NCBI GenBank assembly: GCA_021650915.1
Contig: CP091279.1
Location: 1,860,001 to 1,892,000, forward strand
Source of the DNA: Candidatus Brocadia sp.
GTDB taxonomy: Bacteria > Planctomycetota > Brocadiia > Brocadiales > Brocadiaceae
Direction of reading: 5' to 3'
Length of the DNA stretch: 32,000 nt
The notes under the pieces were generated by a model. That model saw nothing but the letters and a program-made list of their open reading frames with translations. It made no database searches and was not told where the DNA came from. Below are positions 4,727 to 21,478 of the stretch, piece after piece. How positions within the stretch are numbered: the first letter of the stretch is position 1; the number at the start of each line of letters is the position of its first letter. The translations under genes and the position numbers were made by a program.

Positions 4727-4737
4727 ATCTCTATTTA

Positions 4738-6715: not shown

Positions 6716-7975
6716 CTAAGGTTTACAATTCTGATTTAGTGGTTGTAGTTCTGATAGTTGGTAATATTTGTCGGCTTGGCGCTTGTAAATAATAAAAGAG
6801 ACGATAGAAACCAACGCAATAGACACCCACATACACCGAAAGCGGATACCATTATGTAACATGTTAAATAATAATAAAGACATAAAAAAGAACCATTTAT
6901 AGGGAAAATTTCCAAGTCTAATAAAAAAAAATATTGAACCCCCTAAAAATAATACAATGCCAATCATGCCATAAGAATCAAAAATCTCCGTTATTATGTT
7001 ATGGGCTTCTTGCCCTGTCGTACTGTCACCAACACTTATTTCTCCGAATCTACCTTTATCACCGCCTCTTCCAAGTATAACTTCAAATTTATTCTGCTCT
7101 TTAACATGCCCTAAAATTCGCTTATATAAGCTTGCTTTAATATCATAATTAGTGAATCTCTTAGTCATTAATTGCGTATATTGAGTTTGAGTCGGATCAT
7201 TTAGAGACTTCATATTAAAAACAGCATCACTTTGCATAATGACTATCGAAGTGACAACTAACATAGTTACTGGTACGAAAAATGATTTTTTATATTTTCC
7301 AAGTAATTTATAGAATAGATAAATATCTAACAAAATGATAACAGCAAGACCAGCCCTTGAAACAGATACCATAACAAAGACGTTCGAAAATATCAAAATT
7401 ATAATATTTAATATCCAGTACATTGCCTTTTTATTTCGTGTTTCTGTGTTAGCATAATTGATTAATATAAGCATGGAAATTATTAAAATTGCGTAGTAAG
7501 CCAATTGATTTGGGTTGTTAAATGATAGGGCATTTCTCACTGTTCCACCCTTAGCTTCTATCAGCCATGGGGTTATACAGGACACTAACAAACTCCAATA
7601 AAGATAAAATACTCCTTTTGGATTTGAGAAAATCCGATTAAATACAATAGAAAAAAGAAATACTATATAAAATCCGAAAATAAGTTGTATCAAAGTGAGG
7701 AAGTATCCCCCTTTAGAAATAGTTTCCATTGAATAGTACGAATTAACGATAACTGCCCATGAAACAAAGGGTATAAATGGACCTATTAAATATATTCCAA
7801 TTTGAATTTCACTAACATTAACTGCAATTAAAGTAGCTAGTGAAAGCAAAATAATTATCACATCAACGAATTGAAATCCACCTGAGGGCAATAAATAAAT
7901 TGGAAGCATTGCAAACGTAAGAATTGTCAGAATAACCACGGGGGTATGTAGATTTTTTTGTGCAAAAATATTCAT
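6716..7975 (-). CDS. Polytopic membrane protein, O-antigen ligase / Wzy polymerase-like
   Basis: 419 aa, about 10 or more hydrophobic spans. 'VSVSRAGLAVIILL' and the loop 'GDSTTGQEAHNIITEIFDSYGMIGIVLF' resemble the Wzy_C/O-antigen-ligase signature. No exosortase-type CSG motif. Confidence 0.7.
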   Translation of the reverse strand: MNIFAQKNLHTPVVILTILTFAMLPIYLLPSGGFQFVDVIIILLSLATLIAVNVSEIQIGIYLIGPFIPFVSWAVIVNSYYSMETISKGGYFLTLIQLIFGFYIVFLFSIVFNRIFSNPKGVFYLYWSLLVSCITPWLIEAKGGTVRNALSFNNPNQLAYYAILIISMLILINYANTETRNKKAMYWILNIIILIFSNVFVMVSVSRAGLAVIILLDIYLFYKLLGKYKKSFFVPVTMLVVTSIVIMQSDAVFNMKSLNDPTQTQYTQLMTKRFTNYDIKASLYKRILGHVKEQNKFEVILGRGGDKGRFGEISVGDSTTGQEAHNIITEIFDSYGMIGIVLFLGGSIFFFIRLGNFPYKWFFFMSLLLFNMLHNGIRFRCMWVSIALVSIVSFIIYKRQADKYYQLSELQPLNQNCKP

Positions 7976-8032: not shown

Positions 8033-9904
8033 CTAAAAATGTTTACTCCACCACCAAGACCATACAAAAATCAGCCACAATACCCTACTATTATCAAATT
8101 TTTCAGTTAAATGTTCTTTATATATAATATCAATAGGCTTAATATTTAAACCGCCTTTATTATGAGCGGTAGTAATTATGTCCCAAAACATATCTTTATA
8201 CTCGTTTCTAAACCATTCTCCTATGGGAATGTTAAAACCTTGTTTTCGTCGAATAAGAATTTTTTTGGGCAATAAATCACTGCATACCTCTAATAAAATT
8301 GCCTTTTTTTTACCATTTCTTAGTTTGAAATTCCCTGGCATCGAATTAACTAATTCTATAATCCTAAAATCTAAAAATGGGGAGCGAACTTCTAAACTAT
8401 TTTGCATACTTGCAAAATCTATCTTGGGAAGCATGTCACCCTCGAGGAGAATCGACTGATCTGTGTGCAGGATCTTATTTAATATGTCGTCTTCTTGTAC
8501 TTCTTGAAAAAGCTTTTCAATATCCGACCTGATAATATTTGTTGACACCTGTGTGATATTATTAATAACGTCATTCAAATTGGCACCGGTACTTAAACTC
8601 ATCCATTTCAAGTGTCTAAATACCGGATTTGTCTCAATTCCTGATAAGAAGCGTTTTATCCTACGATTATACTGCGTAAACGGGTTACGATAAGATGCAG
8701 GTAGGATATTTGACAAGTTTTTCAGAAAGGGATGTGCTATTTTTACCCACCATTTCTTCATGTAATACTCGCCCAAATATTTGCTATATCCTGCAAAAAC
8801 CTCGTCAGCTCCATCGCCAGAAAGCGCAACGGTAACATATTTTTTTACTTCTTTACACATAATATACGTTGGAATATAGGCTGCGTCAGCGAAAGGCTCG
8901 TCTAGGGAATCTAAGATATTCGGCAAAAAACTTTTTACTTTCTCAGGAGTAACCATGATTTCAGTATGATCTGTTTTGAATCTCCTTGATATAAGGCGAG
9001 CATATTTTGAGTCATCATTATAATTTACAAAATCATTGTATGCGACAGTAAAGGTTTTAACACTTCTCTTAGAAAACTGACTCATAAGCCCTACTACTAT
9101 TGAAGAATCGATTCCACCACTCAAGAATGCCCCCACAGGAACATCCGATAACAAGCGAATTTTTACCGCATCTTCGAGTTCTCTTCTAAGCAATAGCTTA
9201 CCAGTTTTCCAATCTTTAATTTTTTCAACCATTTGGTTCGGCTCATACCATTTTCTTAATTCACTTTTTCCATTTTTCCATTTTAAAAAATATCCACCGG
9301 GAAGTTTACAAATATTTTTCCAAATAGTACGAGGGGCATAATTATATCCGATTGTAAAATATACACTCACACTATCAAGATCTATGGTTTGATTTGAATA
9401 TAATTTCTTAATAGCCTTAATTTCTGAAGAAAAAACAACACCTCCCTTTGTTTCTTCATAAAATAAGGGTTTCACTCCAAATCTGTCTCTTGCTAAAACT
9501 AATTCCTTTGTCTGGCAATCATACCATGCTATGGCAAACATCCCATTAAATTTATTCAAAGCCTTTTCACCCCAATGTATCAAGGCTGCCAAAACCACTT
9601 CAGTGTCTCCAGAAGATTTAAAATGAATACCCTTTTTTGATAGCTCTTCCCGTAGTTCTAAAAAATTGTATACTTCTCCATTGTAGACCAATATGTGTCC
9701 TTTGTTTTCAGATAACATCGGTTGATGAGCCATTTCTGATAAGTCTATTATCGATAAACGTGTATGCCCAAAAATAGCATCTTTATCTCTCCATATCCCA
9801 CTATCATCAGGGCCTCTGTGTCTTATTGAATCTAATGCATTTAGAATATGATTATCTTCTATACTGTTGGCTATTGAACCGACTATTCCTAATATCCCGC
9901 ACAT
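8033..9904 (-). CDS. Asparagine synthase (glutamine-hydrolysing) family amidotransferase, EPS-locus type
   Basis: 623 aa. 'MCGILGIVG' is the N-terminal Cys nucleophile of class II GATase. 'VPVGAFLSGGIDSS' is the PP-loop SGGxDS motif. Confidence 0.9.
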   Translation of the reverse strand: MCGILGIVGSIANSIEDNHILNALDSIRHRGPDDSGIWRDKDAIFGHTRLSIIDLSEMAHQPMLSENKGHILVYNGEVYNFLELREELSKKGIHFKSSGDTEVVLAALIHWGEKALNKFNGMFAIAWYDCQTKELVLARDRFGVKPLFYEETKGGVVFSSEIKAIKKLYSNQTIDLDSVSVYFTIGYNYAPRTIWKNICKLPGGYFLKWKNGKSELRKWYEPNQMVEKIKDWKTGKLLLRRELEDAVKIRLLSDVPVGAFLSGGIDSSIVVGLMSQFSKRSVKTFTVAYNDFVNYNDDSKYARLISRRFKTDHTEIMVTPEKVKSFLPNILDSLDEPFADAAYIPTYIMCKEVKKYVTVALSGDGADEVFAGYSKYLGEYYMKKWWVKIAHPFLKNLSNILPASYRNPFTQYNRRIKRFLSGIETNPVFRHLKWMSLSTGANLNDVINNITQVSTNIIRSDIEKLFQEVQEDDILNKILHTDQSILLEGDMLPKIDFASMQNSLEVRSPFLDFRIIELVNSMPGNFKLRNGKKKAILLEVCSDLLPKKILIRRKQGFNIPIGEWFRNEYKDMFWDIITTAHNKGGLNIKPIDIIYKEHLTEKFDNSRVLWLIFVWSWWWSKHF

Positions 9905-9934
9905 AACAAAATTAATACACTTTCTTTTAAATGG

Positions 9935-10072
9935 TTATTTAGTTAACAATGAAAATATGACATTAGGAGAAGTAACATAATCAGTAACCAGCCTGTCGAA
10001 TAGTTGGTTTTCAGACCATCGGCGGTTAAATCGATAACAAAACTCATCGAGATTGGCTTGTAAACGCTTTTT
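9935..10072 (-). pseudogene. C-terminal scar (45 codons plus stop) of an IS1595-family transposase
   Basis: My minus-strand translation: 'KKRLQANLDEFCYRFNRRWSENQLFDRLVTDYVTSPNVIFSLLTK*'. 'LDEFxxRFNRR' is the conserved C-terminal motif of IS1595/ISXO2-like transposases. No upstream part is present. Confidence 0.6.
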
Positions 10073-10074
10073 AT

Positions 10075-10902
10075 CTAGTTAACCCTTCTCCATCCAGTCA
10101 ATGGACGCCCAAGCAGCTTTTCTACGTAAGCTATGTCTGGCTCAAATTCTTCAATCAAATTCCTTCTTATGTCAGGCTCTAATTTTGGGAGAACTCCCGA
10201 GGTGCTTGTATAGATTCGCTTCAAGCCGAGATTTTTAAAAAAATTAACGGGACTGTGTAGACGTCTGCCCCGCAGAAAATTTGCCATACTATTGCAAAAC
10301 CGAGACAATGATGGGAATACTGTATACGAAGCAATATTTACATGTTCCTCTGCCAAAACCGGCAAGGGTACATCATCAATTCCAATAAAATTGTATACCT
10401 GTTTCAATACTTGCCCGGGAAAAGCTGCAATATCGTCTTGCAAAATAATAAGAACATGTTCTTTCCCAAATATCTCCAACCATCTGCCCAAGTGCATGCG
10501 ATAGCGGCTGGATTCGATAATCCTTGGCATATGCATAATGGCTTCATGAAACTCACATCTTAATTCACCGTATAATTTATAATGTAAATATAAAGAAAAG
10601 CTGCGAGATGCTGGATCTCGAAGAGTAATAATGATGCGGCAGTTTTGATTATGTCGATAAAGCCTTGCTGCTGCTTCTGGTACATCAAAATAAGTAGGAC
10701 CTATCTCAGCGCAAAATTGACTATTCATACAATATCGAAAGTGTGTCCAATACCACGACCAACCTTTATCGAATCGTTCGTCAAAGAAAAAAGTTTCTTT
10801 TGTACCTTGTGGAAAGCAGAGTTGTGGATGTTCTCGCAAGCACCTATCAAGCCACGTTGTGCCTGTTTTTTGTGGCCCCACACCGACAACTTTTAGTTGC
10901 AT
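10075..10902 (-). CDS. Sulfotransferase (PAPS-dependent, Sulfotransfer_1-like)
   Basis: The track ORF runs to 11034, but its first 44 codons lie in a palindromic repeat. The likely start is ATG 10902 ('MQLKVVGVGPQKTGTTWL'). 5'-PSB loop 'PQKTGTT'; 3'-PB motif 'ITLRDPASRSFS'. Confidence 0.8.
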   Translation of the reverse strand: MQLKVVGVGPQKTGTTWLDRCLREHPQLCFPQGTKETFFFDERFDKGWSWYWTHFRYCMNSQFCAEIGPTYFDVPEAAARLYRHNQNCRIIITLRDPASRSFSLYLHYKLYGELRCEFHEAIMHMPRIIESSRYRMHLGRWLEIFGKEHVLIILQDDIAAFPGQVLKQVYNFIGIDDVPLPVLAEEHVNIASYTVFPSLSRFCNSMANFLRGRRLHSPVNFFKNLGLKRIYTSTSGVLPKLEPDIRRNLIEEFEPDIAYVEKLLGRPLTGWRRVN

Positions 10903-10921
10903 AAAAACATCCTCATTATTT

Positions 10922-11074
10922 TGTAACACTTTAGTTTTTTGAAAAATTACCATAATAACGATGTTGCCGCACGGTGTAGGGGCGAAGCATTTGCCATAAA
11001 TTGGCATACATGGATTCACACCCCAAGCAGGCAAATGCTTCGCCCCTACCTTTTCAAAAAACTAAAGTGTTACA
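10922..11074. repeat. 153-bp nested palindromic (MITE/REP-like) element in the GT2-sulfotransferase spacer
   Basis: Outer arms 10922-10945 (tgtaacactttagttttttgaaaa) and 11051-11074 are a perfect 24-bp inverted repeat. Inner arms 10976-10995 (gtaggggcgaagcatttgcc) and 11030-11049 are a perfect 20-bp inverted repeat with a 34-nt loop. Confidence 0.85.
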
Positions 11075-11084
11075 TTATTTTTAA

Positions 11085-11945
11085 CTAAACAACCTTATAA
11101 GCGTTGCGTTTACACTTCCTTCTATACACCACAATTACGCGACGAAGATATTTCAACAAAGAAAACGCGCATAAGACTATCGTTAGAACCCAACTTATGC
11201 GTCTTTCAGCCTGTAACCGCCAATAGGTATCCAAATTTCCCTTTTCCATCTTCCACAAATCAGCAGTTTGCCCCCTTTCACCATATCGAGCCTTGTAAAG
11301 AAATACAAGGGGAAGTTCCAAACGCCAGGTTTCATTTCCATCCAATACAATTTGGAGTTTAAAGAGATAGTCCTCTGAATGTCGCTTCATTGGTTCGAAA
11401 CGGTAAGGCAAATTACGTCGCATTATAATGGAAGGTGTCGAAAAACCATCGCGACCGCTAAATAGCAAAAAACGATAAGGGATTACCGGTGTTGCACGCC
11501 AAGTGTCTGGCAATGTAAGATCAGGCATCCCGGAGAGCACCACAGTACAATTGTGTACCGTCATGGCCACATGAGGGTGTGCCAGCATCCAGCCAAACTG
11601 AATTTCTAATTTGCGTGGGTGCCAGGCATCATCTGCATCCAAAAAGGCAATAAAAGGTTGAGTGGCAACCTCCCAACCTGTATTACGGGCCACCGATGGC
11701 CCACCGTTATGTTCTAACTTAACCACACGAATCCAATTTTTATCATAACGATTCTGTAATTTCATTATAACATTCAGCGTGTCATCGTCACTCGCATCAT
11801 CTACAAGCATAACTTCTTTGGGCAGATGTGTCTGTGCTGCGACCGAATCCACTGATCTCTGAATGGTTTGGGCACAGCGAAAGCAAGGGATCACAACACT
11901 GATCGGTGCGGTGGGCTTATTCATACTAAGACTATTAGGATTCAT
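11085..11945 (-). CDS. GT2-family glycosyltransferase
   Basis: 286 aa. 'ISVVIPCFRCAQTIQRSVDSVAAQT', 'VMLVDDASDDDT' and 'FLDADDAWHPRKLE' (DxD) give the classic GT-A/GT2 N-terminal layout. Confidence 0.85.
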   Translation of the reverse strand: MNPNSLSMNKPTAPISVVIPCFRCAQTIQRSVDSVAAQTHLPKEVMLVDDASDDDTLNVIMKLQNRYDKNWIRVVKLEHNGGPSVARNTGWEVATQPFIAFLDADDAWHPRKLEIQFGWMLAHPHVAMTVHNCTVVLSGMPDLTLPDTWRATPVIPYRFLLFSGRDGFSTPSIIMRRNLPYRFEPMKRHSEDYLFKLQIVLDGNETWRLELPLVFLYKARYGERGQTADLWKMEKGNLDTYWRLQAERRISWVLTIVLCAFSLLKYLRRVIVVYRRKCKRNAYKVV

Positions 11946-12034
11946 AGTTCAACCGAAATTCTATGTTCAACCCAAAACCCAAGATAGGGTTTTAAAACGA
12001 GAGGTTAGCAAGTAATTAGTAACGTTGTCAAGTG

Positions 12035-13385
12035 GAGACCTGAGAAAAGTCCTCCAATGTATAGTTGTCACGCATCAAAGCCGTTGTAGTAATAGGCAAG
12101 CCGAATTTTGGTAACGTTCAGCGCCCCGGCAACACTCCATTTGCTCACATTCACCCGCAGGTTAACCGTACGCATGACGCGCTCTACTTTACTTGTCGTT
12201 CTGCCATTGAGCCTCTTTTCTATCGCCGTAAACATATCAGGCCTGGCATTCTCAAGATAGGATGCGGTATGAGTATATCCCTTCGACAAACAATGCTGAA
12301 TCACCGCATCCAATCGTTTCCTCTTGGACTCTATCATTTTCTCGATGGTCTTCTGACAATCAACCAATGGCCGTATCGCACAGACCTCCATAAGCTCCGA
12401 CATCACCTCCAGCCATTCTTTCCCCTTGCTCTTGACCCCATCTTGCCACAATACATACTTTGCCTGATACGGAATATGCCACAAACATCTCTGTACAAGC
12501 ACCTTGATCTTACCTTTCAAACTATCCAAAATAGAGGTGTCTCCATCGGTTATCAAAAGAAACTGGGAAAACTTCCTGAACACCTTAACACTCTTACCAA
12601 ACAGCGTATCCCAACTACCGTTGTAATCCCCTATGTCAAGCCCTGCCACTCTCACCCCTCCACCTCTTATATTGCACAAAGACCTTGAGCTCCTTGCCTC
12701 GTTTTGCTATCCCCTTAATCCCTACCCCTGTCCCGTCTGCTTCTCCCAGGGGAAGTCCCTTCTCGTCGAGTTGAAAATCTATCTCTGCTGCCGTCTTTTG
12801 TACCGATTTCCATATCGTCATCTTGTCTACTGTCCAGCCAAACATCGACACGATCTTCTTCGCTACCCGGTAGGTCGTTAACGATCCTACCAGCCCAAGC
12901 TTCCGATACGTCTCCGGTGGTATTCGCTTCATCCGCTCCATCCCCAGAAGCTTTCGCGTTATATACATCTTATGACCGCACCTCTTGCACTGCACCTGCA
13001 ACTGCTCTAATCTCAACCACTGAAAGACCGTCAGTATCTTCGTCTCTTTTCCATGCCTCGTCTTCCAGATAAACTCCTTGTCATTCCCACATTCGTCGCA
13101 GCAAAATGGCTTCCGTGATTGCGCCATCGCACTCTCACCAAAACCAACCACGATCTTCTGAATAAAATCCCTTAATATCTCCGGCAGTATCTTGCAAAAT
13201 GCCTTGAGAATCGACTCCAGGCTGCCGTCCTTTAATTCAACCCGAATTTGACAACCAAATTCTATTGTGATACCATCTGTGCATGGGGTTGCTCCCATAT
13301 AGCCCTCCTTTTCTTTATGGTTTAGTTTCTTGTATCAAAACTATTTTTTACCATATTTGGAGGGCTTTTTCTTTAACCAAGTCTC
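12035..13385 (-). mobile_element. IS element with imperfect ~30-bp terminal IRs; zinc-finger plus DDE transposase of ISLre2/ISKra4/UPF0236-like architecture (family tentative)
   Basis: The left end 12035- (gagacctgagaaaagtcctccaatgtat) aligns with the reverse complement of the right end 13385- (gagacttggttaaagaaaaagccctccaaatat), with one 4-5 nt indel. The transposase has an AGGAGGG RBS at about 13303-13310. Confidence 0.6.
12068..13298 (-). pseudogene. Transposase split into two overlapping ORFs (12636-13298 and 12068-12679) by a +1 frame change with no slippery run
   Basis: ORF1 contains 'CDECGNDKEF..CKRCGH' (CxxC..CxxC) and 'GEADGTGVGIKG'. ORF2 contains 'LLITDGDTSILD' and 'VQRCLWHIPYQAKY'. 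The join reads ..KVFVQY / NIRGGGVRVAGLDIGDY.. . Confidence 0.65.
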
Positions 13386-13699
13386 TCTTTTTCTACTCTA
13401 CCAAGTAATTTGTACCGAATTTCAGCAATATGCAGGATAAAAAATAACCGTTACATGAATTTCTCCGTGATTTTCGCTATTTTCACAAATTACGGACGCA
13501 GTATCTCCGTAATGAGTAGTTTTTCTTTCATACTATGGAGCAGGTATCGATTATAAGAATCCCCGAACAAACCGAAATAATCTGTCTTCAGACTGCTGAA
13601 ATACTTCTATAAACCGGTGCAACGAAGGGAGACTCACCCGGAAACCTCTGCCGTATCTGAAGACCTTACAGGGAATCTTAATCAGGAATTTTTGATGGT

Positions 13700-14553
13700 C
13701 TTCAAGCTCCTTGTTTTCCACACATCTTCCAGAATCTGCAGATGAAACACTGAACGATGTTGTAGGTAATGCATTTCATGATCATAAATGCGTTGTTTGC
13801 AGACTCCCGTGAGTGCGCTTTGTCAATATAGAACTCATAGCTTCGCTCTTTGATAAAATTCTCTACCTGACAGCCTGAATTGTAGGCACGAAAGATTTCC
13901 TCTTTGGTCTCATTGTCATCGGCATGGGTAACAATCGACTCGTACTCATACGAAGGCGGTAGCTCAAAGAGTGATTTCTAGTGTTTGCCTTTGTTCTGAC
14001 AGGGACGAGTTTCCTTATGACGACAAATCTCCGTTCCTTACCCCCGGCATCAGGGCGATAGTACGCCACGGCCAGATCAAAGGGTGTACCCTCAATATGG
14101 GTAAACGGTTCTTCTGGAATACGAGCAAAGCAACTTTGCATCTTTGGATTTACCATGACCTTGAGGTAATACGCAATAGTCTGCTGTTGCCTCAAGGAAT
14201 AACCAAGGGTCTTCAGAGAAGAACCCCGTACCCGGCTGAGCCAGCAGTCTTTGGGAAGCAGGGCTATGGTTTTCCCGATGAAGGTGCGAAGTCTGTCTTT
14301 GTGATGACTCTCCCGTCGTAGAGCTGGAAATTGATTAACCAGCCCGTATTGTACAGGAATGCCACTTTGGGCTGAAAACTCGGGATGTCATGTTTTTGGG
14401 ATTATATCCAACCTCTGTGTTCTCCTGATGCCCATAAACGGTGTTATACTCTAAGGGTTCATAAACAATGATTTCTGGCGTTTTACATAACTTTTGTTCA
14501 CATGAATGGTTAAAGTGTTTCAAAAATCACATTTTGTGAACTCTCCGAGTATA
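13700..14553 (-). mobile_element. Degenerate IS1380-like (DDE_Tnp_1_6-type) element; outer end at 14553, inner/left boundary uncertain
   Basis: The transposase is broken over three frames. One frame reads 'GKTIALLPKDCWLSRVRGSSLKTLGYSLRQQQTIAYYLKV'. ORF 13863-14195 reads 'FARIPEEPFTHIEGTPFDLAVAYYRPDAGGKERRFVVIRK'. About 13745-13975 reads 'YEYESIVTHADDNETKEEIFRAYNSGCQVENFIKERSYEFYIDKAHSRESANNAFMIMKCITYNIV', the C-terminal E/K signature region. The terminal 109 bp recur at 2211-2319. Confidence 0.6.
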
Positions 14554-14770
14554 TGTTGACCTCGAGTCGTTGAGTAATCAAAGGCTCTATAAGGCAAGGA
14601 TGGCACATTACAATTCCCATCTTTCTTTGAATACCAGACTTGTTTAAAGGCAGATGGAGGATTCCGAAAAGTTTCTTTCCTTCATGGTGGAAGAAAAAGG
14701 CCTTTTCATGTAAATTATCTTCTTGATCAACCCGATTTGAAAACTGGTCTAGTTTTAATAATTTGTTCAT
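14554..14770 (-). pseudogene. Truncated third alpha/beta-hydrolase copy (paralogue of 15704-16642) cut by the IS1380-like end
   Basis: 'FSNRVDQEDNLHEKAFFFHHEGKKLFGILHLPLNKSGIQRKMGIVMCHPCLIEPLITQRLEVNI' parallels residues ~16-79 of the 312-aa protein. Similarity stops exactly where the IS terminus (tatactcggagag..) begins at 14553. Confidence 0.8.
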
Positions 14771-14784
14771 CCCATAATTTCAAA

Positions 14785-15684
14785 TTAATTCATTATCAAA
14801 TATCTTGAAACAATCCATTTTAAAATTTTTGCAATAACGGTTTCCTGTACCAGGACATCTACAACAAGACCATGCGCCTTTTCCCCTTGTATCTCATAAA
14901 ATTCAACATTCTTGCGTTTCTCAGGGTCTATTTTTTGCAGAAATAACTTCATATTTTCATAGAATTCGTCCCTGGTGCCATAAATCATTAAAGACGGTAT
15001 CCCTTTTTTCACAAGGGTGGAAAGTTGATTTGAAAAGCTTTCACTGATAAGTAAATTGGTGTTAATCCCCGCCCATTTATTATGAATCCTCTTGATGAAA
15101 AAAATAAAATTCCTTTTTATTCTTTCGGTATTCAAAAAAGTTCCCCACCTTTGCCATTTCAGTTTATTAATGTAATGTGTAATATCCTTTCTGCCCGCTT
15201 GATGAGTTACCCTTTCAGCATTATTTATCGTTGGAGCAGCAAGAAAGACTAAGCCATGAAATTTTATTAAATTTACCATACTTAAAGCCGTTCGTGCGCC
15301 AAAACATTCGCCTACGAGTATAATCTTGCCTGGGTTAATAAGATTCGTCAAGAAATTTATAATGTGCAGTAAATCTTGACTGAGCACCTTGTCAATACTT
15401 ACATCTTCAAAAAGCCCTGTGCTTTCACCGAGTCCCCTATAGTCAAAGCGAAAAGAAAAGAATCCTGATTCGGCTAATTGGCGCGCCAATATTACCCACA
15501 TTCGGTTTCGATGGGTTCTCGGTATTGACGCCCCGGTTAATAAAATAACAACTACTTTGTCACGTGATGAAGATGTATCAGGTATATGTAAAATACCAAA
15601 TATATCATAATTCCTGGTTTGAATAAAAACTGGCTTTTCCGTACATTGAGATCCAGGATTTTTTGTTGAATAAATATGAGACAC
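14785..15684 (-). CDS. Alpha/beta-fold hydrolase with Cys at the nucleophile elbow (GECFG)
   Basis: 299 aa. GTG start at 15684 with AGGAGG at 15694-15699. The fold signature is 'VVVILLTGASIPRTHRNRMW..FRFDYRGLGESTG..KIILVGECFGARTAL'. The elbow Cys127 codon is at 15304-15306. Confidence 0.7.
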   Translation of the reverse strand: MSHIYSTKNPGSQCTEKPVFIQTRNYDIFGILHIPDTSSSRDKVVVILLTGASIPRTHRNRMWVILARQLAESGFFSFRFDYRGLGESTGLFEDVSIDKVLSQDLLHIINFLTNLINPGKIILVGECFGARTALSMVNLIKFHGLVFLAAPTINNAERVTHQAGRKDITHYINKLKWQRWGTFLNTERIKRNFIFFIKRIHNKWAGINTNLLISESFSNQLSTLVKKGIPSLMIYGTRDEFYENMKLFLQKIDPEKRKNVEFYEIQGEKAHGLVVDVLVQETVIAKILKWIVSRYLIMN

Positions 15685-15703
15685 TTTATTATGCCTCCTA
15701 AGA

Positions 15704-16642
15704 TTATATTATGACCTTATTTGCAGGACAAACAATAAGTTTTTTACACCATTGTAAAATAGTTTGTACAATCTTTTCTGAACGGAAAGGAGGATGCAAT
15801 ATGAAATTCCAGGCAAGTCTTCGTTCATGTATTAGTGTAATGTCACAACTTCCGCCGTTTTTTTGAATCTGGTTACCAAGATCTCGAAATGCCTTTGTAA
15901 CTTTTATGGAAAGCCCTGATACTTGAATCAAAAGGGTTTTCCCTGAAAAATATTTTGCACTCTGCATCAAATTAAAAGATGCCGTTTCAACAAATATTTC
16001 TTTGTAAAGAGGATAACCAAGAACAGTTACCATTCCGTGAGTCATTAAATGTTGAATCATTTGCTCCGTAGAAATTATTTTTTCTTGTCTTACTACAGCA
16101 GAAAACTTGGCCGTACGGAAAAGATCGAGAAAACAACTTTTGGGTTCTATTATCGGTTCACAAAGCACCACAAACTCGATTCGCTTTTCAACCTCGGCCG
16201 CCATAAGGGCCACCGTACCCCCAAGTCTTATTCCCAAAAGACCTATCGAATCTAAATCTTCCTGTTCTGTAAAGACCTTTATGGCCATTGCGGTATCTGA
16301 AATCTGAGAGGAAAGCGTTGTGTCTTTAAAATCTCCTTCACTATCACCACATCCCCGGTAATGAAAACGAAACACCGAAAAACCATTTTGGGCCAGACTC
16401 CTGGCTATATCGATTTCCAGTCTCTGAGTAATCAAAGGTTCTACCAGATAGGGCTGGCACATTACAATTCCAATCTTTCTTTGACCATCAGATATATTTA
16501 AAGGTCGATGAAGAATTCCAAAAAGTCTCTTTCCTTCATGCTGGAAGAAAAAGGCCTTTTCATGTAGATTGTGCTCTTGATCAATCCGGCTTGCAAAACG
16601 GTCTATTTTTGACCAATCATTTTCTGATAATGTATTCAACAT
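15704..16642 (-). CDS. Alpha/beta-fold hydrolase-like protein with Arg in place of the nucleophile (GIRLGG)
   Basis: 312 aa. 'IGIVMCQPYLVEPLITQRL..FRFHYRGCGDSEGDF..IGLLGIRLGGTVALMAA'. The Arg139 codon (aga) is at 16226-16228. Confidence 0.7.
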   Translation of the reverse strand: MLNTLSENDWSKIDRFASRIDQEHNLHEKAFFFQHEGKRLFGILHRPLNISDGQRKIGIVMCQPYLVEPLITQRLEIDIARSLAQNGFSVFRFHYRGCGDSEGDFKDTTLSSQISDTAMAIKVFTEQEDLDSIGLLGIRLGGTVALMAAEVEKRIEFVVLCEPIIEPKSCFLDLFRTAKFSAVVRQEKIISTEQMIQHLMTHGMVTVLGYPLYKEIFVETASFNLMQSAKYFSGKTLLIQVSGLSIKVTKAFRDLGNQIQKNGGSCDITLIHERRLAWNFILHPPFRSEKIVQTILQWCKKLIVCPANKVII

Positions 16643-16659
16643 CTTATTCTCAAGTCAGT

Positions 16660-16682
16660 AACCACCCGCATAGCGGGTGGTT
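16660..16682. promoter_or_regulatory. Perfect GC-rich hairpin (10-bp stem, 3-nt loop) in the sulfotransferase-hydrolase spacer
   Basis: aaccacccgc-ata-gcgggtggtt. It has no flanking U-tract on the coding (minus) strand. It ends 18 nt upstream of the ATG at 16642. Confidence 0.5.
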
Positions 16683-16771
16683 TAGCTCAGGAATTAGTTC
16701 GTATTTATAATAATCTGATTTGAAATACTCCTTTAAAACCATACTACATACAATTGATTTGACGCAATCCT

Positions 16772-17803
16772 TCATTTCTCTCTTAGTACATTATTAGCCT
16801 CAATTTTTTTATGAGGTGCCCAAATTCTCCGTGTAAATTTCAATAAAGTACTCCGAAGAATTAAATTTACCCAACTATGAAGTAGCGCTAAATAACGACG
16901 ATACCTAGGTGGGGGTGGCATGAAATCAAATTCCAGATCATACCCATATGTCATCAGCGTGTTCCACATATACAATTCTAACGCTTTCCGCTGATCCTGT
17001 TTTAAAGTCTTCTTATATCCACCAACTGAATCAGAAAAAATTGGCTTTGCCACATTACCGTGATGCTTTATATTAGAGGCCGTTTGTGCATCTGAACTAG
17101 CATAATATTGCAACATCGATTCTTCATAATTTATTTTTAAATAATTACAAATTGTTAAGAGAGTCTTTTTTGGATCAGAGACTAAATCTTCATATCGAAC
17201 GGTCATAACCCTATCAGGTCCAAAATACCTTTCTGCAAGCATTCCATTTAATACACACTCATTCCATTCCAGAGAGATATCAGCAAGATTCGTTCCTCCC
17301 AATTTCGCCCTTAGCGCTGAAACTGCCACATCACGCCCATCACGTACTATATTTATGAACTTAGATATAGGGAATAGTTTTCCAAGGAATATGATAGAAT
17401 TCACATAGAGCGGAGTTTTGTCGCCCCATATCTCAACGGTGCTTTTCGTGTTAAAATAGGCATTAATATTCATAACTATATCTTGAAATGTCCGTTTCTT
17501 TAATCTTTTTATTATCACTTCAGCAGATGGTAATTTTTCCCATCCATGCACTCTTCGCTTTAAATATTTGTTTATTTCATGTAACAATGTAAATAAATTG
17601 CTATCTATTGAAAGATCACCGAATGCATTCAATTGTGCACCAAAGATTGGTATATATCCTGTTTCTCCCCCTATGTATATCTTAGAATGTGCGTTTAAAA
17701 TAAGACGTAAAAGCGACGTACCTGAGCGATAGCACCCCACAACAAAAAGAGGTGCATTACAATCAAGTGCATTTACCCTATTATCAGATTCCATGGTTTC
17801 CAT
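16772..17803 (-). CDS. Sulfotransferase (Sulfotransfer_3/Stf0-like), paralogue A
   Basis: 343 aa. 5'-PSB loop 'VVGCYRSGTSLLRLIL'; 3'-PB 'NIVRDGRDVAVS'. Confidence 0.8.
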   Translation of the reverse strand: METMESDNRVNALDCNAPLFVVGCYRSGTSLLRLILNAHSKIYIGGETGYIPIFGAQLNAFGDLSIDSNLFTLLHEINKYLKRRVHGWEKLPSAEVIIKRLKKRTFQDIVMNINAYFNTKSTVEIWGDKTPLYVNSIIFLGKLFPISKFINIVRDGRDVAVSALRAKLGGTNLADISLEWNECVLNGMLAERYFGPDRVMTVRYEDLVSDPKKTLLTICNYLKINYEESMLQYYASSDAQTASNIKHHGNVAKPIFSDSVGGYKKTLKQDQRKALELYMWNTLMTYGYDLEFDFMPPPPRYRRYLALLHSWVNLILRSTLLKFTRRIWAPHKKIEANNVLREK

Positions 17804-17897
17804 ATTCGACCAAATTTATCCATTTAAATAGTCTAGACTTGGCTATTCTTTCATTGCACCCACCTCATTGATGAGACGTTAATCTTTTTCATACATA

Positions 17898-18944
17898 TCA
17901 CTTAGCAACTCTTTTACGAAAGAACCAAGATCTACGTACCAATTTCTTTGGAGCACCCCGAAGCAATAACTTTACACAACTATGAAATAGCGATAAATAG
18001 CGATAATGTTTAGGTGGAGGCGGCAGGAAGTCAAACTCTAAATCGTACCCATATGTCTTCAGCGTGTTCCACATATACAACTCTAATGTTTTACGCTGAT
18101 CTTGTTTTAAAACTTTCTTATATCCACCAACTGAATCTGATGAAATTGGTTTTATAACATTACTATGATGTTTTACCTTGGAAAGTGCTTGTGCATCTGA
18201 AGTTGCATAATATTGGGTCATTGATTCTTCGTAATTAATGTTTAAAAAATCACAAATCATTAGTAAAACTGTTTTTGGATCAGAGGCTAAATCTTCGTAT
18301 CGAATGGTTTTAACCCTTTTGGGTCCGAAATACTTCTCTGCAAGCATCCCATTTAATATACACTCATTCCATTCCAGAGAGATATCAGTAAGATTCGTTC
18401 CACCCAATTTCGCCCTCAACGTTGAAACAGCTACGTCACGCCCGTCACGTACCATATTTATGAATTTAGACCTAGGGAATAGCTTTCCAATGAACAGTAT
18501 GGAATTCACATAGAGCGGGGTTTTATCGCCCCATATTTCAATGGTACTTTTCGTATTAAAATATGTATTAACATGCATAACTATGTCTTGAAATGTCCGT
18601 TTCTTTAACCTTTTTACTACTTCTTCGATGACCGGTAGTCTTTTCCACCCATATACAATTCGTTCTAACTGTTTATTTATATCCTGTATCAAAGTAAATA
18701 AATTGTTATCTTCTGAAAGATCACCATACTTATGTAAGTTTGCACCAATGATTGGTATATATCTCGTTTCTTCCGGAATACATATTTTAGAGTGTGTGTT
18801 TAAAATGAGGCGCATAAGCGTAGTACCAGAGCGAGAGCACCCGACAATAAACAGGGGCGCATCCCTGTCAAGCGTATTTATCATAGCACTGTATCTTTCA
18901 TGTTCGAATAAACCTATCCAAGTAAATGGTCCAGACTTGACCAT
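17898..18944 (-). CDS. Sulfotransferase (Sulfotransfer_3/Stf0-like), paralogue B
   Basis: 348 aa. 'IVGCSRSGTTLMRLIL' and 'NMVRDGRDVAVS'. Collinear with paralogue A and identical at most positions by eye. The alternative ATG at 18884 ('MINTLDRDAPLF') would remove the overlap with the upstream gene. Confidence 0.8.
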   Translation of the reverse strand: MVKSGPFTWIGLFEHERYSAMINTLDRDAPLFIVGCSRSGTTLMRLILNTHSKICIPEETRYIPIIGANLHKYGDLSEDNNLFTLIQDINKQLERIVYGWKRLPVIEEVVKRLKKRTFQDIVMHVNTYFNTKSTIEIWGDKTPLYVNSILFIGKLFPRSKFINMVRDGRDVAVSTLRAKLGGTNLTDISLEWNECILNGMLAEKYFGPKRVKTIRYEDLASDPKTVLLMICDFLNINYEESMTQYYATSDAQALSKVKHHSNVIKPISSDSVGGYKKVLKQDQRKTLELYMWNTLKTYGYDLEFDFLPPPPKHYRYLSLFHSCVKLLLRGAPKKLVRRSWFFRKRVAK

Positions 18945-19885
18945 TCGTTCGTTACGATTCTTTTAAAGTAAAAACTGTCTTGCTTCACATGATTGTATCC
19001 GCGAATATTCAGTAAACAGGATTGAAATCCTGTTTTTTTAAAATGGTCGATCAATCCATACGCACAATCGTTATGACCACCAAAAGGAAATGCAAAATGG
19101 ACACAGGGTTTCCCAATCTGGTTTTCAATAATCGATTTACTCCGGTCTATTTCTTGCTTCGCTTCTTCAAGAGGCAATCTTGACAAAGAGCGATGAGTGA
19201 CACCGTGAGCGCCGATTTCCATACCGCACACACTCATTCGCTTTGCCTGTTCCCAAGAAATACCACAATCTTGTCTGATATCTGTTAATTTATTTGTTGA
19301 ATGCTTTCTCAAAAACCCTGTGACTTCCTGTATTTTATCAACGGTTATTGATTTCATACTATCAATGACACGTACGGCAAAAGATAATCTCGGTTCATGC
19401 ATTCTTTGTTCAAGTAATTTATTCTCTATTTCAATGCTATGAGTATCGGTACAGTCCCTCATCACTAGGGTGAAAACTTCCCAATCCCACACAGGTTCAT
19501 TCTTGCCAACATAATCTGTAGTCAGAAAAAATGTGGCGGGCAATCCCCTTTCTCTTAAAATGGGAAACGCCACCTCATAATTATCCCAATATCCATCATC
19601 AAATGTTAGTACAACTTGAACCTTTGCTTTTGCCTGTCCTGTGTGACATTGGTTTATTGCATCGGTTAATGAAATTATCGGATACCTTTTCCTTAATATA
19701 TCGATCTGTCTAATAAACGTTTTTTCGGTTATCACGGTATTCCTAGAATTAAATCGTACTTCTGGCAGCACACGATGATATAACAAAATTAAAAGTTTGT
19801 TTTTTTGATCAGTAAGTTTATTTTTCCAGTGGTTTACTCTATAAATAAGATTTTTTGCTGTAGTTTTTATCAAAATACTTTCCAC
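18914..19885 (-). CDS. Polysaccharide deacetylase (NodB homology domain)
   Basis: 323 aa, GTG start. 'VVLTFDDGYWDNYEVAFPILRERGLPATFFL', 'MEIGAHGVTHRSL', 'HFAFPFGG'. Confidence 0.85.
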   Translation of the reverse strand: MESILIKTTAKNLIYRVNHWKNKLTDQKNKLLILLYHRVLPEVRFNSRNTVITEKTFIRQIDILRKRYPIISLTDAINQCHTGQAKAKVQVVLTFDDGYWDNYEVAFPILRERGLPATFFLTTDYVGKNEPVWDWEVFTLVMRDCTDTHSIEIENKLLEQRMHEPRLSFAVRVIDSMKSITVDKIQEVTGFLRKHSTNKLTDIRQDCGISWEQAKRMSVCGMEIGAHGVTHRSLSRLPLEEAKQEIDRSKSIIENQIGKPCVHFAFPFGGHNDCAYGLIDHFKKTGFQSCLLNIRGYNHVKQDSFYFKRIVTNEWSSLDHLLG

Positions 19886-19918: not shown

Positions 19919-21478
19919 TTATCCCTCAGTAGTACCATAACTTACCCTTTTCCTAATCAGATTTAACATAATATAATCTTCTTCATCTAAACCTAACAAT
20001 CTGAATACAACAAAATAGAGACAAAGGCATCCTAATGTTATACCAGCGATGAAAGGGATACCACAATGAGGAAAGATAAAATGCTTTGCGGATATTACTG
20101 AACCGATCAAAACTAAACCCGATAAGAAGTGTTTGACATACGAGGCATTGTATGGATGTATTTTCAGAATCGTATATACTTCAAATATCCTGATCAAGTT
20201 TATTAATGTAACAGATATGGTAGTTGCTATAGCTGCGCCGACAATGCCGTATTTTGGGATTAAAAATAGATTCAGAATTATATTGAGCACAAATGTGCCT
20301 AATTCATTATATAGATTTACCAGGGGTTTCCCAATCATAGTGATTATTAAGCCACACGGGCCTGTCAATACATCGATAATACGAGCAAAACTCAAAATTA
20401 TCAAGCAGTTTATGCCGGCCAAATATCCCTCTCCAAAAATATTCAGGGCATAATCAGGTAGCAAGATTAACAATAAGTAATATGGAAAAGTCAAAACAAA
20501 CGCCCACTTGGTCACTACTGCATAATACCTCTTTAAAGAATCAAGATCTTTTTTATAATAAGAAGATGAAATAATTGGAGCAAATATAGTCCCAAAAGAA
20601 TAGAAAATAAGAGTCCCCAAAAGGATAAGACGACAAACAATATTGTAAACACCAACATCTTTTGAGGTCATAAAATACCCTATCATAAATGTATCTGTCC
20701 ATACACAAAAAAAGATCACCAACTGAGAAAAAAGCCGGGTTGCTGAAAATTTTGCTAATTCACTAAAATTGTAAATTGCTGTTATCTTTTTATCGAATAT
20801 AGCAAATTTTTTTCTAAAAAAATACAGCGCAAAGAAGGCGCCTAAAACAATTGACACTGTATACGATATTAAAGCACTTTTGAATTGCATGCCCAAGGAA
20901 AGCAAGATTAAAAAAATGACAACCTGAGTAATAGGTATTATTAACCTTTTTACATATACTTTATATTTCATTATTCTCAGAGCCTGAATTGAGGATAACA
21001 ATACTTCTGAAGCGGCCGCAAATGGGATTGCAAAAACCATAATTTTTGTAACTGAAGAGACCTCAGGTTTATGGAAGAATGAAACAGATATTGTATCTGA
21101 CATAGAATACAATACGATCGCACACAATATGCTTAAAGGAATAACTATTATCAACCCAGAAATAATAGCCCCCTTCGTTCTTTGAATATCTCTTTCCTGG
21201 TAAAAAATAGACACATACCGTAAAATACCATAGCCAAAACCACAAACTGACATGTCTGTGACAAAACGATTTATACACATCCCCAAAAAGAATAAGCCTA
21301 CATAGTCTGCCGAAAGCCATCTGGCGAGGATAAGGTTGAAAACAAAGGCAAAAATAGTTCCTATTATCTCGCCAAAACAATTTATCCCTGCGCCTTTGGC
21401 AATAGTCTTAATATCTTTTTGATAGAGTGTTTTTTCCCCTTCTTCCGTAATAGCACTATTTTCCATATTTATTCCCAA
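19919..21478 (-). CDS. wzx: Wzx-type (MOP superfamily) polysaccharide flippase
   Basis: 519 aa with about 12-14 hydrophobic spans. The 'polysaccharide biosynthesis protein' layout is typical. The track start 21478 is TTG; the ATG at 21466 ('MENSAITEEG') is the more likely start. Confidence 0.85.
   Translation of the reverse strand: MGINMENSAITEEGEKTLYQKDIKTIAKGAGINCFGEIIGTIFAFVFNLILARWLSADYVGLFFLGMCINRFVTDMSVCGFGYGILRYVSIFYQERDIQRTKGAIISGLIIVIPLSILCAIVLYSMSDTISVSFFHKPEVSSVTKIMVFAIPFAAASEVLLSSIQALRIMKYKVYVKRLIIPITQVVIFLILLSLGMQFKSALISYTVSIVLGAFFALYFFRKKFAIFDKKITAIYNFSELAKFSATRLFSQLVIFFCVWTDTFMIGYFMTSKDVGVYNIVCRLILLGTLIFYSFGTIFAPIISSSYYKKDLDSLKRYYAVVTKWAFVLTFPYYLLLILLPDYALNIFGEGYLAGINCLIILSFARIIDVLTGPCGLIITMIGKPLVNLYNELGTFVLNIILNLFLIPKYGIVGAAIATTISVTLINLIRIFEVYTILKIHPYNASYVKHFLSGLVLIGSVISAKHFIFPHCGIPFIAGITLGCLCLYFVVFRLLGLDEEDYIMLNLIRKRVSYGTTEG

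Follow-up and report, generated by a model that had tools for sequence, protein, structure and literature searches.

We analyzed a stretch of 32,000 nucleotides of a Candidatus Brocadia sp. genome (contig CP091279.1 of assembly GCA_021650915.1, positions 1,860,001 to 1,892,000 of the forward strand), hereafter called the window, which contains three genes for sulfotransferases of the 3'-phosphoadenosine-5'-phosphosulfate (PAPS) type. The G+C content is about 38%, and nearly all long open reading frames (ORFs) are on the minus strand. Profile searches with Pfam and NCBIfam placed the genes in a polysaccharide cluster that extends from position 30115 down to 3584 on the minus strand and includes Wzx/Wzy and Wza/Wzc genes. 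The sulfotransferases, here named ST-A, ST-B and ST-C, are encoded as follows:

10075..10902, minus strand: ST-A, PAPS-type sulfotransferase of 275 aa, XssA-like and heparan-sulfate 3-O-/N-sulfotransferase-like
16772..17803, minus strand: ST-B, sulfotransferase of 343 aa, XssE/TPST-like, tandem paralogue of ST-C
17898..18944, minus strand: ST-C, sulfotransferase of 348 aa, or of 328 aa if the start is at 18884, XssE/TPST-like

In the direction of transcription, the cluster starts with the genes for a priming transferase, Wza, Wzc, a PseB/CapD-like dehydratase, an SQD1-like enzyme, a short-chain dehydrogenase/reductase (SDR), Wzx, a deacetylase of carbohydrate esterase family 4 (CE4), ST-C and ST-B. 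These are followed by two alpha/beta-hydrolase genes, an ORF of 86 codons, about 2.5 kb of transposase fragments and unassigned DNA, a family 2 glycosyltransferase (GT2) gene and ST-A, and finally by the genes for an AsnB-type amidotransferase, a Wzy_C-family protein, a beta-helix protein and a family 4 glycosyltransferase (GT4). Positions 13345-28944 are 100% identical to contig LAQJ01000124.1 (GCA_000987375.1), which we take to be from Candidatus Brocadia fulgida. The latter assembly appears among the genomes of anaerobic ammonium-oxidizing (anammox) bacteria in PMC10156729. The window probably carries the main envelope/exopolysaccharide cluster of this anammox Candidatus Brocadia genome.

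Sulfotransferases of two families

An earlier sequence-only reading of this DNA had proposed three minus-strand ORFs for PAPS-type sulfotransferases of two classes, and the Pfam searches confirmed all three. ST-A matched Sulfotransfer_1 (1.1e-13, 51.6 bits as compared to a cutoff of 22) and Sulfotransfer_3 (5.5e-12, 46.8 bits), whereas the Sulfotransfer_3 matches of ST-B and ST-C had E-values of 4.7e-32 and 8.2e-34. With the two models, ST-B scored 112.4 and 41 bits and ST-C 118.2 and 54 bits, all above the gathering scores. No NCBIfam equivalog matched either sulfotransferase family. The ST-A start at 10902 is backed by a GAGGA ribosome-binding site and by the lengths of homologues; the NCBI annotation is a protein of 310 aa that begins at an ATG further upstream. 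ST-C may start at 18884 (328 aa), as in database clusters.

The PAPS motifs quoted in the sequence-only reading are literally present in all three proteins, and are conserved among the 32 homologues aligned for ST-A and the 36 aligned for ST-B/C. In ST-A they are GPQKTGTT (10855-10878) and RDPASRSFS (10594-10620), in ST-B GCYRSGTS (17714-17737) and RDGRDVAVS (17318-17344), and in ST-C GCSRSGTT (18819-18842) and RDGRDVAVS (18423-18449). The ST-A alignment showed an invariant or nearly invariant loop G9-P10-Q11-K/R12-T13-G14-T/S15-T/S16, followed by K35-E36-T37 and R95-D96-P97...R100...S103, with K/R12, T/S15, T/S16, E36, R95, R100 and S103 either invariant or at least 90% conserved. In the ST-B/C family, the invariant positions are R38, S39, G40, R166, D167, R169 and D170, conservation of E59, K141 and S174 is at least 94%, and both paralogues retain the full set of residues. 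ST-B keeps R26/S27/G28 of the 5'-phosphosulfate-binding loop, as well as RDGRDVAVS, the Glu in GGETGY and the Lys in WGDKTP. Careful alignment therefore showed retention, not loss, of the PAPS-binding residues.

The distinction of two classes was also borne out. ST-A and ST-C aligned by BLASTP at the P-loop only, and the profile-profile comparison of the two families with hhalign (probability 97.5%, 18% identity) indicates remote homology only, with the catalytic Glu positions of both families aligned to each other. By sequence, the nearest solved structures to ST-A are 3rnl (9e-21) and the heparan sulfate (HS) enzymes 3-OST-3, 3-OST-1 and the N-sulfotransferase (NST) domain of NDST1 (1e-14 to 1e-15). 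E36 in the KET motif aligns to the catalytic Glu184 of HS 3-OST-3. An AlphaFold2 model of ST-A (pLDDT 89.0) retrieved 3rnl, HS 3-OST-1/3/5 and the NST domain of NDST1 in Foldseek, with TM-scores of about 0.7, E-values of 1e-12 to 1e-14 and, as for ST-C below, a probability of 1.00 to sulfotransferase structures with bound PAP or PAPS. ST-A is 30% identical to XssA (E 2e-18) and 100% identical to B6D35_00200 of Candidatus Brocadia sp. UTAMX2.

For ST-C, the PDB sequence matches were TPST2 (4e-18) and the sulfotransferase domain of CurM (9e-13). The AlphaFold2 model (pLDDT 89.5), which includes a basic C-terminal helix at residues 312-347, matched TPST1/2 first (E about 1e-13), followed by the sulfotransferase domains of CurM and olefin synthase (OLS), with a probability of 1.00. 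Glu99 of human TPST2 corresponds to E59 of ST-C and E47 of ST-B, and Lys158 to K141. The label "Stf0/Sulfotransfer_3" given to ST-B/C in the sequence-only reading was correct in its second half. Stf0 was absent from the Pfam matches, from the PDB sequence matches and from the 50 listed Foldseek matches, and since the nearest sequences and folds are TPST1/2 and CurM/OLS, we reject this name. ST-C is 28% identical to XssE (E 8e-21), while the cross pairs ST-A/XssE and ST-C/XssA match at the P-loop only. The locus encodes three intact sulfotransferases of two families, all predicted to be PAPS-dependent.

The tandem paralogues ST-B and ST-C are 73% identical, with a dN/dS ratio of 0.28. Across the ST-B/ST-C paralogues and alleles the ratio was 0.2-0.3, which indicates purifying selection on the sulfotransferases. 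The block 17843-22643 is 93% identical to positions 6235-11042 of a locus in a close relative (L010, described below), as compared to about 97-99.6% in the flanks. Within this block, ST-C differs from its counterpart in the relative (about 79-80% nucleotide and 76% protein identity) roughly as much as from its paralogue ST-B. The mosaic divergence suggests allele replacement or recombination at this first sulfotransferase gene.

Both families were found in the vicinity of glycan genes. In the best 80 loci from a contig scan with the ST-A family, tblastn of the neighbourhood (within 10 kb, E at most 1e-8) detected a GT2 gene in 31 cases, a GT4 gene in 26, a priming transferase in 17 and Wzx in 8. 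These relatives span many phyla, including Anaerolineae (59%), Longimicrobium, Gemmatimonadota, many cyanobacteria (41-46%), Planctomycetota, Bacteroidota and Binatia. The top locus was in an Anaerolineae metagenome-assembled genome (MAG; 59% identity), and no Brocadia was present among the best 80; the distribution of the sulfotransferases within Brocadia was taken solely from the protein database. The nearest relatives of ST-B/C outside Brocadia (42-43% identity) are located in Wzx/Wzy clusters directly after a pair of PseB-like and SqdB-like genes, and the SqdB-like proteins beside them are 60-62% identical to that of the window. At 33-37% identity, the relatives are tandem sulfotransferases adjoining GT4/GT2 genes. 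The cluster context of both families points to a glycan acceptor by association.

Sugar-supply and assembly genes

Two genes that may provide a sulfonated sugar are located upstream of the SDR gene:

22781..23953, minus strand: SQD1/SqdB-type UDP-sulfoquinovose synthase homologue (PDB 1qrr match)
23950..25098, minus strand: PseB/CapD-type UDP-GlcNAc 4,6-dehydratase-like SDR (Pfam Polysacc_synt_2, 8.8e-98)

The sequence-only reading covered 10075-18944 and invoked SqdB, an amidotransferase and a deacetylase, the genes for which lie beyond or at the edge of that span; all three identifications held. The SQD1-like protein aligns end to end with Arabidopsis SQD1 (1qrr, residues 2-382, E 6.4e-132) and retains the catalytic Thr (GTMGEYGTPN) and Tyr-His-x-x-Lys (SSLYHTTK). 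Databases label its close homologues either as "UDP-sulfoquinovose synthase" or as a generic epimerase. The PseB-like dehydratase scored 288 bits with the NCBIfam PseB model, under the cutoff of 408.

The stop codon of the PseB-like gene overlaps the start of the SQD1-like gene by 4 bp, an overlap also seen in L176 (8865-11149) and L177 (8940-11149). The pair is likewise found in L092 (1204-3402) and L093 (670-2905). In overlapping form it is present in a deltaproteobacterial Wzx/Wzy cluster and in the orthologous exopolysaccharide (EPS) cluster of Candidatus Jettenia, where the identity is 88% and sulfotransferase genes are lacking. Unrelated bacteria thus carry the pair in Wzx/Wzy clusters, some with sulfotransferases and some without them. 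The identity of the SQD1-like protein across Jettenia, Nitrospira, Desulfobacterales and one Nitrosotenuis MAG is 75-88%.

In its end-to-end alignment and catalytic residues, the window protein resembles the SQD1/SqdB/Agl3 enzymes; it differs in that its gene belongs to a bacterial Wzx/Wzy cluster and shows translational coupling to the gene for a PseB-like dehydratase. Agl3 of Sulfolobus feeds sulfoquinovose into a protein N-glycan and provides a precedent for a glycan destination. The simplest reading is that the SQD1-like subfamily would supply a sulfo-sugar to glycans and not to lipids. We know of no characterised bacterial polysaccharide that bears sulfoquinovose, and a literature search found no paper on sulfoquinovose in a bacterial exopolysaccharide.

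The other genes of the cluster are, in the order of transcription:

29135..30115, minus strand: priming polyprenyl-phosphate glycosyl-1-phosphate transferase (Pfam Bac_transf 1e-66; TIGR03025 328 bits, cutoff 295.6)
27983..28573, minus strand: Wza-type outer-membrane polysaccharide export protein (Pfam Poly_export 1e-20 and SLBB)
25358..27949, minus strand: Wzc-type co-polymerase/tyrosine kinase (Pfam Wzz, GNVR, CbiA/AAA_31, DUF4388)
21561..22580, minus strand: SDR nucleotide-sugar epimerase/dehydratase (Pfam Epimerase 4.9e-54)
19919..21478, minus strand: Wzx-type flippase (Pfam Polysacc_synt 5e-20 and MatE)
18914..19885, minus strand: CE4 polysaccharide deacetylase, no signal peptide (Pfam Polysacc_deac_1 1.9e-25; TFDDG, HGVTH)
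15704..16642 and 14785..15684, minus strand: two alpha/beta-hydrolases, exosortase-A-associated hydr2/hydr1-like (TIGR03101, TIGR03100)
11085..11945, minus strand: GT2 glycosyltransferase (Pfam Glycos_transf_2 2e-30)
8033..9904, minus strand: AsnB-type glutamine amidotransferase (Pfam Asn_synthase 2.9e-86 and GATase_6/7)
6716..7975, minus strand: Wzy_C-family membrane protein (Pfam Wzy_C 1.9e-07, 31.4 bits, just under the cutoff of 31.7)
4738..6648, minus strand: right-handed beta-helix protein (Pfam Beta_helix), with a signal-peptide-like hydrophobic N-terminus
3584..4726, minus strand: GT4 glycosyltransferase (Pfam Glycos_transf_1 3.6e-30 and Glyco_trans_4_2)

The window contains three glycosyltransferases: the priming Bac_transf enzyme, one generic GT2 and one GT4. 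The priming transferase is short (326 aa), covering residues 124-443 of the 445-residue TIGR03025 model without the usual N-terminal membrane segment, and no remnant of such a segment was found in the 630 bp up to the adjoining transposase gene. The Wzy_C-family protein would be the polymerase, possibly a ligase or an O-oligosaccharyltransferase. The deacetylase gene, with its CE4 motifs TFDDG and HGVTH, is located directly upstream of ST-C. For the SDR at 21561-22580 no NCBIfam equivalog reached its cutoff, and the hydrolases scored 85.9 bits (TIGR03101) and 59.5 bits (TIGR03100), both under the cutoffs.

The amidotransferase has the N-terminal Cys and exceeds the cutoff of TIGR01536 (467 bits), while its match to TIGR03108 (474 bits) is under the cutoff of 817. 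AsnB-type enzymes such as WbpS amidate a carboxylate and thereby remove its charge. Its inclusion among the anionic decorations in the sequence-only reading was accordingly mistaken, since amidation of this type would neutralise a carboxylate and add no negative charge. The beta-helix protein, a candidate glycan lyase or modifying enzyme as judged from its profile matches, has an N-terminus similar to NCBIfam PelN (1e-11); its Chondroitinase_B match (28.5 bits) covers only 44 N-terminal residues and should not be over-read.

In Wzc, a DUF4388/PatA_N domain (residues 579-710) is inserted between the Walker-A part (508-577) and the remainder of the ATPase (776-841). Within this domain, residues 635-681 form an MshEN-type motif for binding of cyclic di-GMP (c-di-GMP) (NF053729, 54.2 bits, cutoff 38), and the Jettenia orthologue shares the PatA_N insertion. 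This architecture suggests that polymer export could be under direct c-di-GMP control.

An insertion-sequence scar and a lost module

The sequence-only reading had assigned all three sulfotransferases to one EPS operon. The genes are contiguous in a close relative but not in the window genome, in which an insertion-sequence (IS) scar and a deletion separate ST-B/ST-C from ST-A:

about 11946..14509: insertion-sequence scar, with ISH6-like transposase pieces, unassigned DNA and a 109-nt repeat
14510..14770, minus strand: remnant (86 codons) of a gene for a 619-aa fused double hydrolase, truncated by rearrangement

The uninterrupted order was derived from two loci of the relative, MWTE01000005.1 of UTAMX2 (L007) and the 3.25-Mb contig JAJTXD010000001.1 of GCA_021463075.1 (L010), which are 99.5% identical over their overlap. 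It reads Wza, Wzc, PseB-like, SqdB-like, SDR, Wzx, deacetylase, ST-C', ST-B', hydrolase and hydrolase, then a further module, and thereafter GT2, ST-A, AsnB and Wzy onward. The homology of the window to L010 ends at 14559, at about codon 70 of the 619-aa gene, and restarts at 11970 just upstream of GT2, which identifies the 86-codon ORF as a gene remnant. Over 205 nt, the remnant shares 81% identity with the 5' end of the hydrolase gene at 15704-16642. An acyl carrier protein at 14510-14770 was rejected, as this ORF is a 5' hydrolase remnant and the true carrier-protein gene is found only in the relative. The scar sequence is absent from both L007 and L010, which keep the rest of the double-hydrolase gene and six further genes. 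Within the scar, an ISH6-like transposase is split over two frames (13298-12636 and 12679-12068; NCBIfam transpos_ISH6, 5e-16). No terminal inverted repeats were found at the IS boundaries, nor was there a plasmid match.

The module lost from the window genome (L007 1-9016, L010 14215-20987) encodes the fused hydr2 and hydr1 double hydrolase of 619 aa, a carrier protein of 81 aa, a PigA/RedW-like L-prolyl-carrier-protein dehydrogenase (459 bits, cutoff 500), an amino-acid adenylation enzyme (TIGR01733, 375 bits, cutoff 317), the beta and alpha subunits of an electron transfer flavoprotein (ETF) and an Fe-S/CCG oxidoreductase. This set, inside an EPS cluster, resembles the machinery that forms the pyrrole-2-carboxyl group in the prodigiosin and clorobiocin pathways. 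By this likeness the module may add an aminoacyl or pyrrolyl ester/amide to the glycan.

The 109-nt repeat is located at the deletion breakpoint (14445-14553) and has an inverted copy at 2211-2319 (89% complementary). The relatives have a single copy of the repeat (109-125 nt), which is placed between their genes for the carrier protein and the dehydrogenase (L007 2121-2245, L010 16631-16755). Contigs of several public assemblies end at or within this repeat, which may be recombination-prone or similar to a miniature inverted-repeat transposable element. In several independent sequencing runs, contigs reach past the 14559 breakpoint and into the repeat with 100% identity to the window, which shows that the arrangement belongs to a recurring lineage in which it is stably maintained.

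In the relative, 46 bp separate GT2 from the gene before it, so that GT2 probably lacked a separate promoter. The half of the window cluster downstream of the scar, with Wzy and ST-A, may rely on read-through or on a promoter inside the scar. A scan for consensus promoters and terminators around the scar gave results at chance level. The window block 6110-11970 downstream of the scar is 98.8% identical to the uninterrupted relative. The distal end (window 3594-6648 as compared to L007/L008 14292-16626 and 17801-19693) differs between the two Brocadia lineages. Between Wzy and GT4, the window has an intact beta-helix gene of 636 aa, whereas UTAMX2 has only a short remnant, a GT4 of 79.8% identity, and a methyltransferase gene and a 630-aa beta-helix gene on the opposite strand.

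Mobile-element genes or fragments flank the cluster on both sides (321-2954 and 30747-31988). They include an IS630-like DDE_3 transposase with a helix-turn-helix ORF at 321-1864 and two fragments of DDE_Tnp_1-type transposases at 2489-2691 and 31202-31404, which are in direct orientation and 79% identical. An Rfam scan of the whole window gave no match.

The predicted polymer, its alternatives and known systems

We favour, with moderate confidence, the reading that the cluster directs the synthesis of a sulfated heteropolysaccharide by a Wzx/Wzy-dependent pathway with Wza/Wzc export, and that the modifications are made on the lipid-linked repeat unit. Assembly of the unit on undecaprenyl phosphate would fall to the priming transferase together with the GT2 and the GT4, from sugars that would include the products of the PseB-like dehydratase, the SQD1-type enzyme (probably UDP-sulfoquinovose, which carries a C-sulfonate) and the further SDR. 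At the cytoplasmic face, the lipid-linked unit would be de-N-acetylated by the cytoplasmic CE4 enzyme, amidated by the AsnB-type enzyme and sulfated from PAPS by three cytoplasmic sulfotransferases, the XssA-like ST-A and the XssE-like ST-B and ST-C, presumably at different positions. The modified unit would then be flipped, polymerised and exported. None of the three sulfotransferases has a signal peptide, which together with the basic C-terminal helix of ST-B/C would suit action at the inner-membrane face on a lipid-linked unit. The acceptor, the sulfated positions, O- versus N-sulfation, the sulfoquinovose content and a pathway still running in the window strain are what we infer.

Several observations weigh against a sulfated polysaccharide. 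The 32-kb window contains no PAPS-supply gene (APS kinase, ATP sulfurylase); the literature that was found on anammox bacteria shows sat and aprAB and leaves cysC unmentioned, and a literature search on cysC/APS kinase in these bacteria gave nothing usable. Among solved structures, the best relatives of ST-B/C are enzymes whose acceptors are protein tyrosine and a polyketide, not sugars, and acceptor specificity is not readable from sequence. The SQD1-like protein misses the NCBIfam equivalog cutoff (NF041015, 470.9 as compared to 575 bits). The genes for GT2, ST-A, AsnB, Wzy, the beta-helix protein and GT4 are all downstream of the IS scar and may have lost their promoter. Close homologues of ST-B/C occur in only two Brocadia lineages in the protein database, and the orthologous Jettenia cluster has no sulfotransferases. 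A metagenome scan with the ST-B/C family returned distant relatives only (25-34% identity), and of the 34 loci of such distant relatives that spanned at least 8 kb, only 7 had a GT2 gene. Even among anammox bacteria, the sulfotransferases are accessory genes. Being missing in Jettenia and present in only two Brocadia lineages, they cannot explain the sulfated polymers of anammox granules generally.

The sequence-only reading described the product as a glycosaminoglycan (GAG)-like polymer. This does not agree with the gene content, which is that of a Wzx/Wzy-type pathway: no GAG synthase, UDP-sugar dehydrogenase (UDPG_MGDP_dh) or C5-epimerase was found in the window. We reject a true GAG pathway for the window, which has neither synthase nor dehydrogenase; such genes may be located elsewhere in the genome. 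The locus does fit the looser sense in which "GAG-like" is used for granular sludge, namely a dye-binding, sulfated, hexosamine-containing and partly N-sulfated polymer. The position of the cytoplasmic deacetylase gene directly upstream of a sulfotransferase gene would allow N-sulfation. A polymer with two kinds of sulfur charge is a tentative and rather unlikely extension. Its C-sulfonate would be that of sulfoquinovose, provided by the conserved PseB-like/SQD1-like pair, which is a mark of many uncharacterised glycan clusters in bacteria, and the XssA- and XssE-type enzymes would add sulfate esters, or N-sulfates on de-N-acetylated hexosamine. If true, it would be the first sulfoquinovose-containing bacterial polysaccharide and would give the first genetic basis of the sulfated "GAG-like" matrix of anammox granules.

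The SqdB-like enzyme might instead serve the synthesis of the lipid sulfoquinovosyldiacylglycerol (SQDG) or make another sugar, leaving an O-sulfated polymer without C-sulfonate, which we regard as somewhat unlikely. Characterised SqdB/SQD1 enzymes do serve SQDG synthesis, the missed equivalog cutoff counts in the same direction, and the 4-bp overlap with the PseB-like gene hints at a two-enzyme pathway. However, no SqdX/SQD2-type (SQDG synthase) partner was recognised in the window, the pair forms part of the Wzx/Wzy clusters of Brocadia, Jettenia, a deltaproteobacterium, L092 and L093, and the retained catalytic residues and full-length alignment are those of SQD1. It is also unlikely that the cluster is decaying in the window strain. 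In that case the IS-associated deletion would have ended expression of the downstream half, Wzy and ST-A included, the strain would lack a complete sulfated polymer, and the ORFs would be intact because the event was recent. The hydrolase gene cut from 619 aa to 86 codons, the loss of six genes in exchange for about 2.5 kb of transposase and unassigned DNA, the probable lack of a GT2 promoter and the transposase genes or fragments on both sides would agree with decay. Against it, all other ORFs are intact, ST-A and the 6110-11970 block are 100% and 98.8% identical to the uninterrupted relative, and the cut arrangement has been stably maintained in a lineage recovered in several sequencing runs. 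Moreover, IS elements often provide outward promoters.

The remaining two alternatives concern the acceptor. The glycan could be transferred to protein, for example an anammox S-layer glycoprotein, or to lipid A-core, with the Wzy_C protein as ligase or O-oligosaccharyltransferase and the sulfotransferases decorating a glycoconjugate. The Wzy_C match is weak (31.4 bits, cutoff 31.7), and this Pfam family also spans WaaL ligases and PglL-type O-oligosaccharyltransferases. Sulfated glycoconjugates, and not free polysaccharide alone, have been described in granular sludge (PMC10483923). We nevertheless consider this outcome improbable, as the cluster has a full Wza/Wzc pair typical of capsule/EPS export, and in L092, L093 and L177 the genes for Wzx, Wzy and several glycosyltransferases follow the classical repeat-unit layout. 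It is very improbable that ST-B and ST-C are protein or peptide tyrosine sulfotransferases of the RaxST/TPST kind that act on a secreted protein. Their top matches are human TPST1/2 (E 4e-18 by sequence, about 1e-13 in Foldseek), with R78, E99 and K158 of TPST2 and the Arg and Ser of the 3'-phosphate-binding motif conserved, but these residues belong to the general PAPS-binding and catalytic set and recur in CurM, whose acceptor is not tyrosine. The informative homologues at 33-43% identity all reside in glycan clusters (L092, L093, L174, L175), the synechan EPS cluster has a family member in XssE, and neither a candidate precursor peptide nor a peptide exporter was seen nearby.

The strongest precedent for a sulfated polysaccharide made by the Brocadia locus is synechan, which appears to be the only genetically characterised bacterial sulfated-EPS pathway. 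Its cluster has two sulfotransferases of distinct subfamilies according to its authors (Maeda et al. 2021, PMC8205485). The statement in the sequence-only reading that loci for sulfated EPS are poorly defined is thus true in part, as the xss cluster is a characterised precedent with both types of sulfotransferase (PMC8205485). Both xss, on plasmid pSYSM of Synechocystis sp. PCC 6803, and the window contain a Wzx/Wzy EPS cluster with a co-polymerase, XssA- and XssE-type sulfotransferases, GT2/GT4 glycosyltransferases and a priming sugar transferase. Heterologous expression of xss has been achieved in Synechococcus (PMC13125312). The xss-type set of Wzx, Wzy, co-polymerase, XssA-type and XssE-type genes is present in Brocadia, but split by the IS scar. 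In contrast to the cyanobacterial cluster, the Brocadia locus is in an anammox planctomycete, has a tandem duplication of the XssE-type gene, three glycosyltransferases as compared to eight in xss, and a Wzc with the c-di-GMP-binding insertion. It adds an SQD1-type enzyme, PseB-like dehydratase, CE4 deacetylase, AsnB-type amidotransferase and alpha/beta-hydrolases. No counterparts of the XssQ/XssR/XssS regulators were found, there being no two-component or STAND regulator among the window ORFs.

Other systems were less similar. Pontiella sulfatireligans F21 has a dye-detected sulfated polymer and a predicted sulfated-GAG-like EPS cluster (PMC7356697). Compared by description, this is likewise a cluster of the PVC superphylum with a PF13469 sulfotransferase among GT2/GT4 genes, but it has one sulfotransferase, not three, and no SqdB-type gene. 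ST-A appears to share the fold, PAPS motifs and catalytic Glu of the animal HS enzymes (NDST, 3-OST), and the deacetylase gene adjoining a sulfotransferase gene recalls the logic of the N-deacetylase/N-sulfotransferase. However, ST-A is only about 20% identical to these enzymes and has Phe in place of the His of E-x-H, the sulfotransferase adjoining the deacetylase is TPST-like and not NST-like, and no heparosan/chondroitin synthase, C5-epimerase or UDP-glucose dehydrogenase is present in the window. The amidotransferase, hydrolases, priming transferase, export protein and chain-length determinant have best or near-best matches to models of the XrtA/PEP-CTERM system, and the lost module includes an exosortase-A-type AMP ligase match, but with a PigA/RedW-like dehydrogenase and ETF in place of the usual decarboxylase. 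We reject an XrtA/PEP-CTERM system, as TIGR03108, TIGR03100/03101, TIGR03013, TIGR03027 and TIGR03007 were all under their cutoffs and no exosortase was found in the window.

Sulfated GAG-like polymers have been reported in anammox granules, with producers and genes described as unclear in PMC7356697 and PMC10483923. They have also been measured in other granular sludges, and the reference sulfotransferases used in genome mining were possibly the wrong ones (PMC7356697, PMC10483923). A literature search found no paper that pairs Brocadia with a sulfotransferase. The locus gives concrete candidate sulfation genes in an anammox bacterium and a candidate source of granule sulfated polymers. It contradicts the published view that bacterial sulfated polysaccharides are confined to cyanobacteria (PMC8205485). 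The system type is not new, since such sulfotransferase families are widespread beside glycosyltransferases: a Wzx/Wzy cluster with XssA- and XssE-type enzymes is of an already known kind, and the accessory set in Brocadia is what is unusual. The value of the locus is limited because everything beyond gene identity is deduced and the sulfotransferases were seen in two Brocadia lineages only. It does provide a comparison set for sulfation genes, consisting of the B. fulgida-type cluster with sulfotransferases and a cut, the UTAMX2-type cluster with sulfotransferases and an intact order, and the Jettenia cluster with the core genes and no sulfotransferases.

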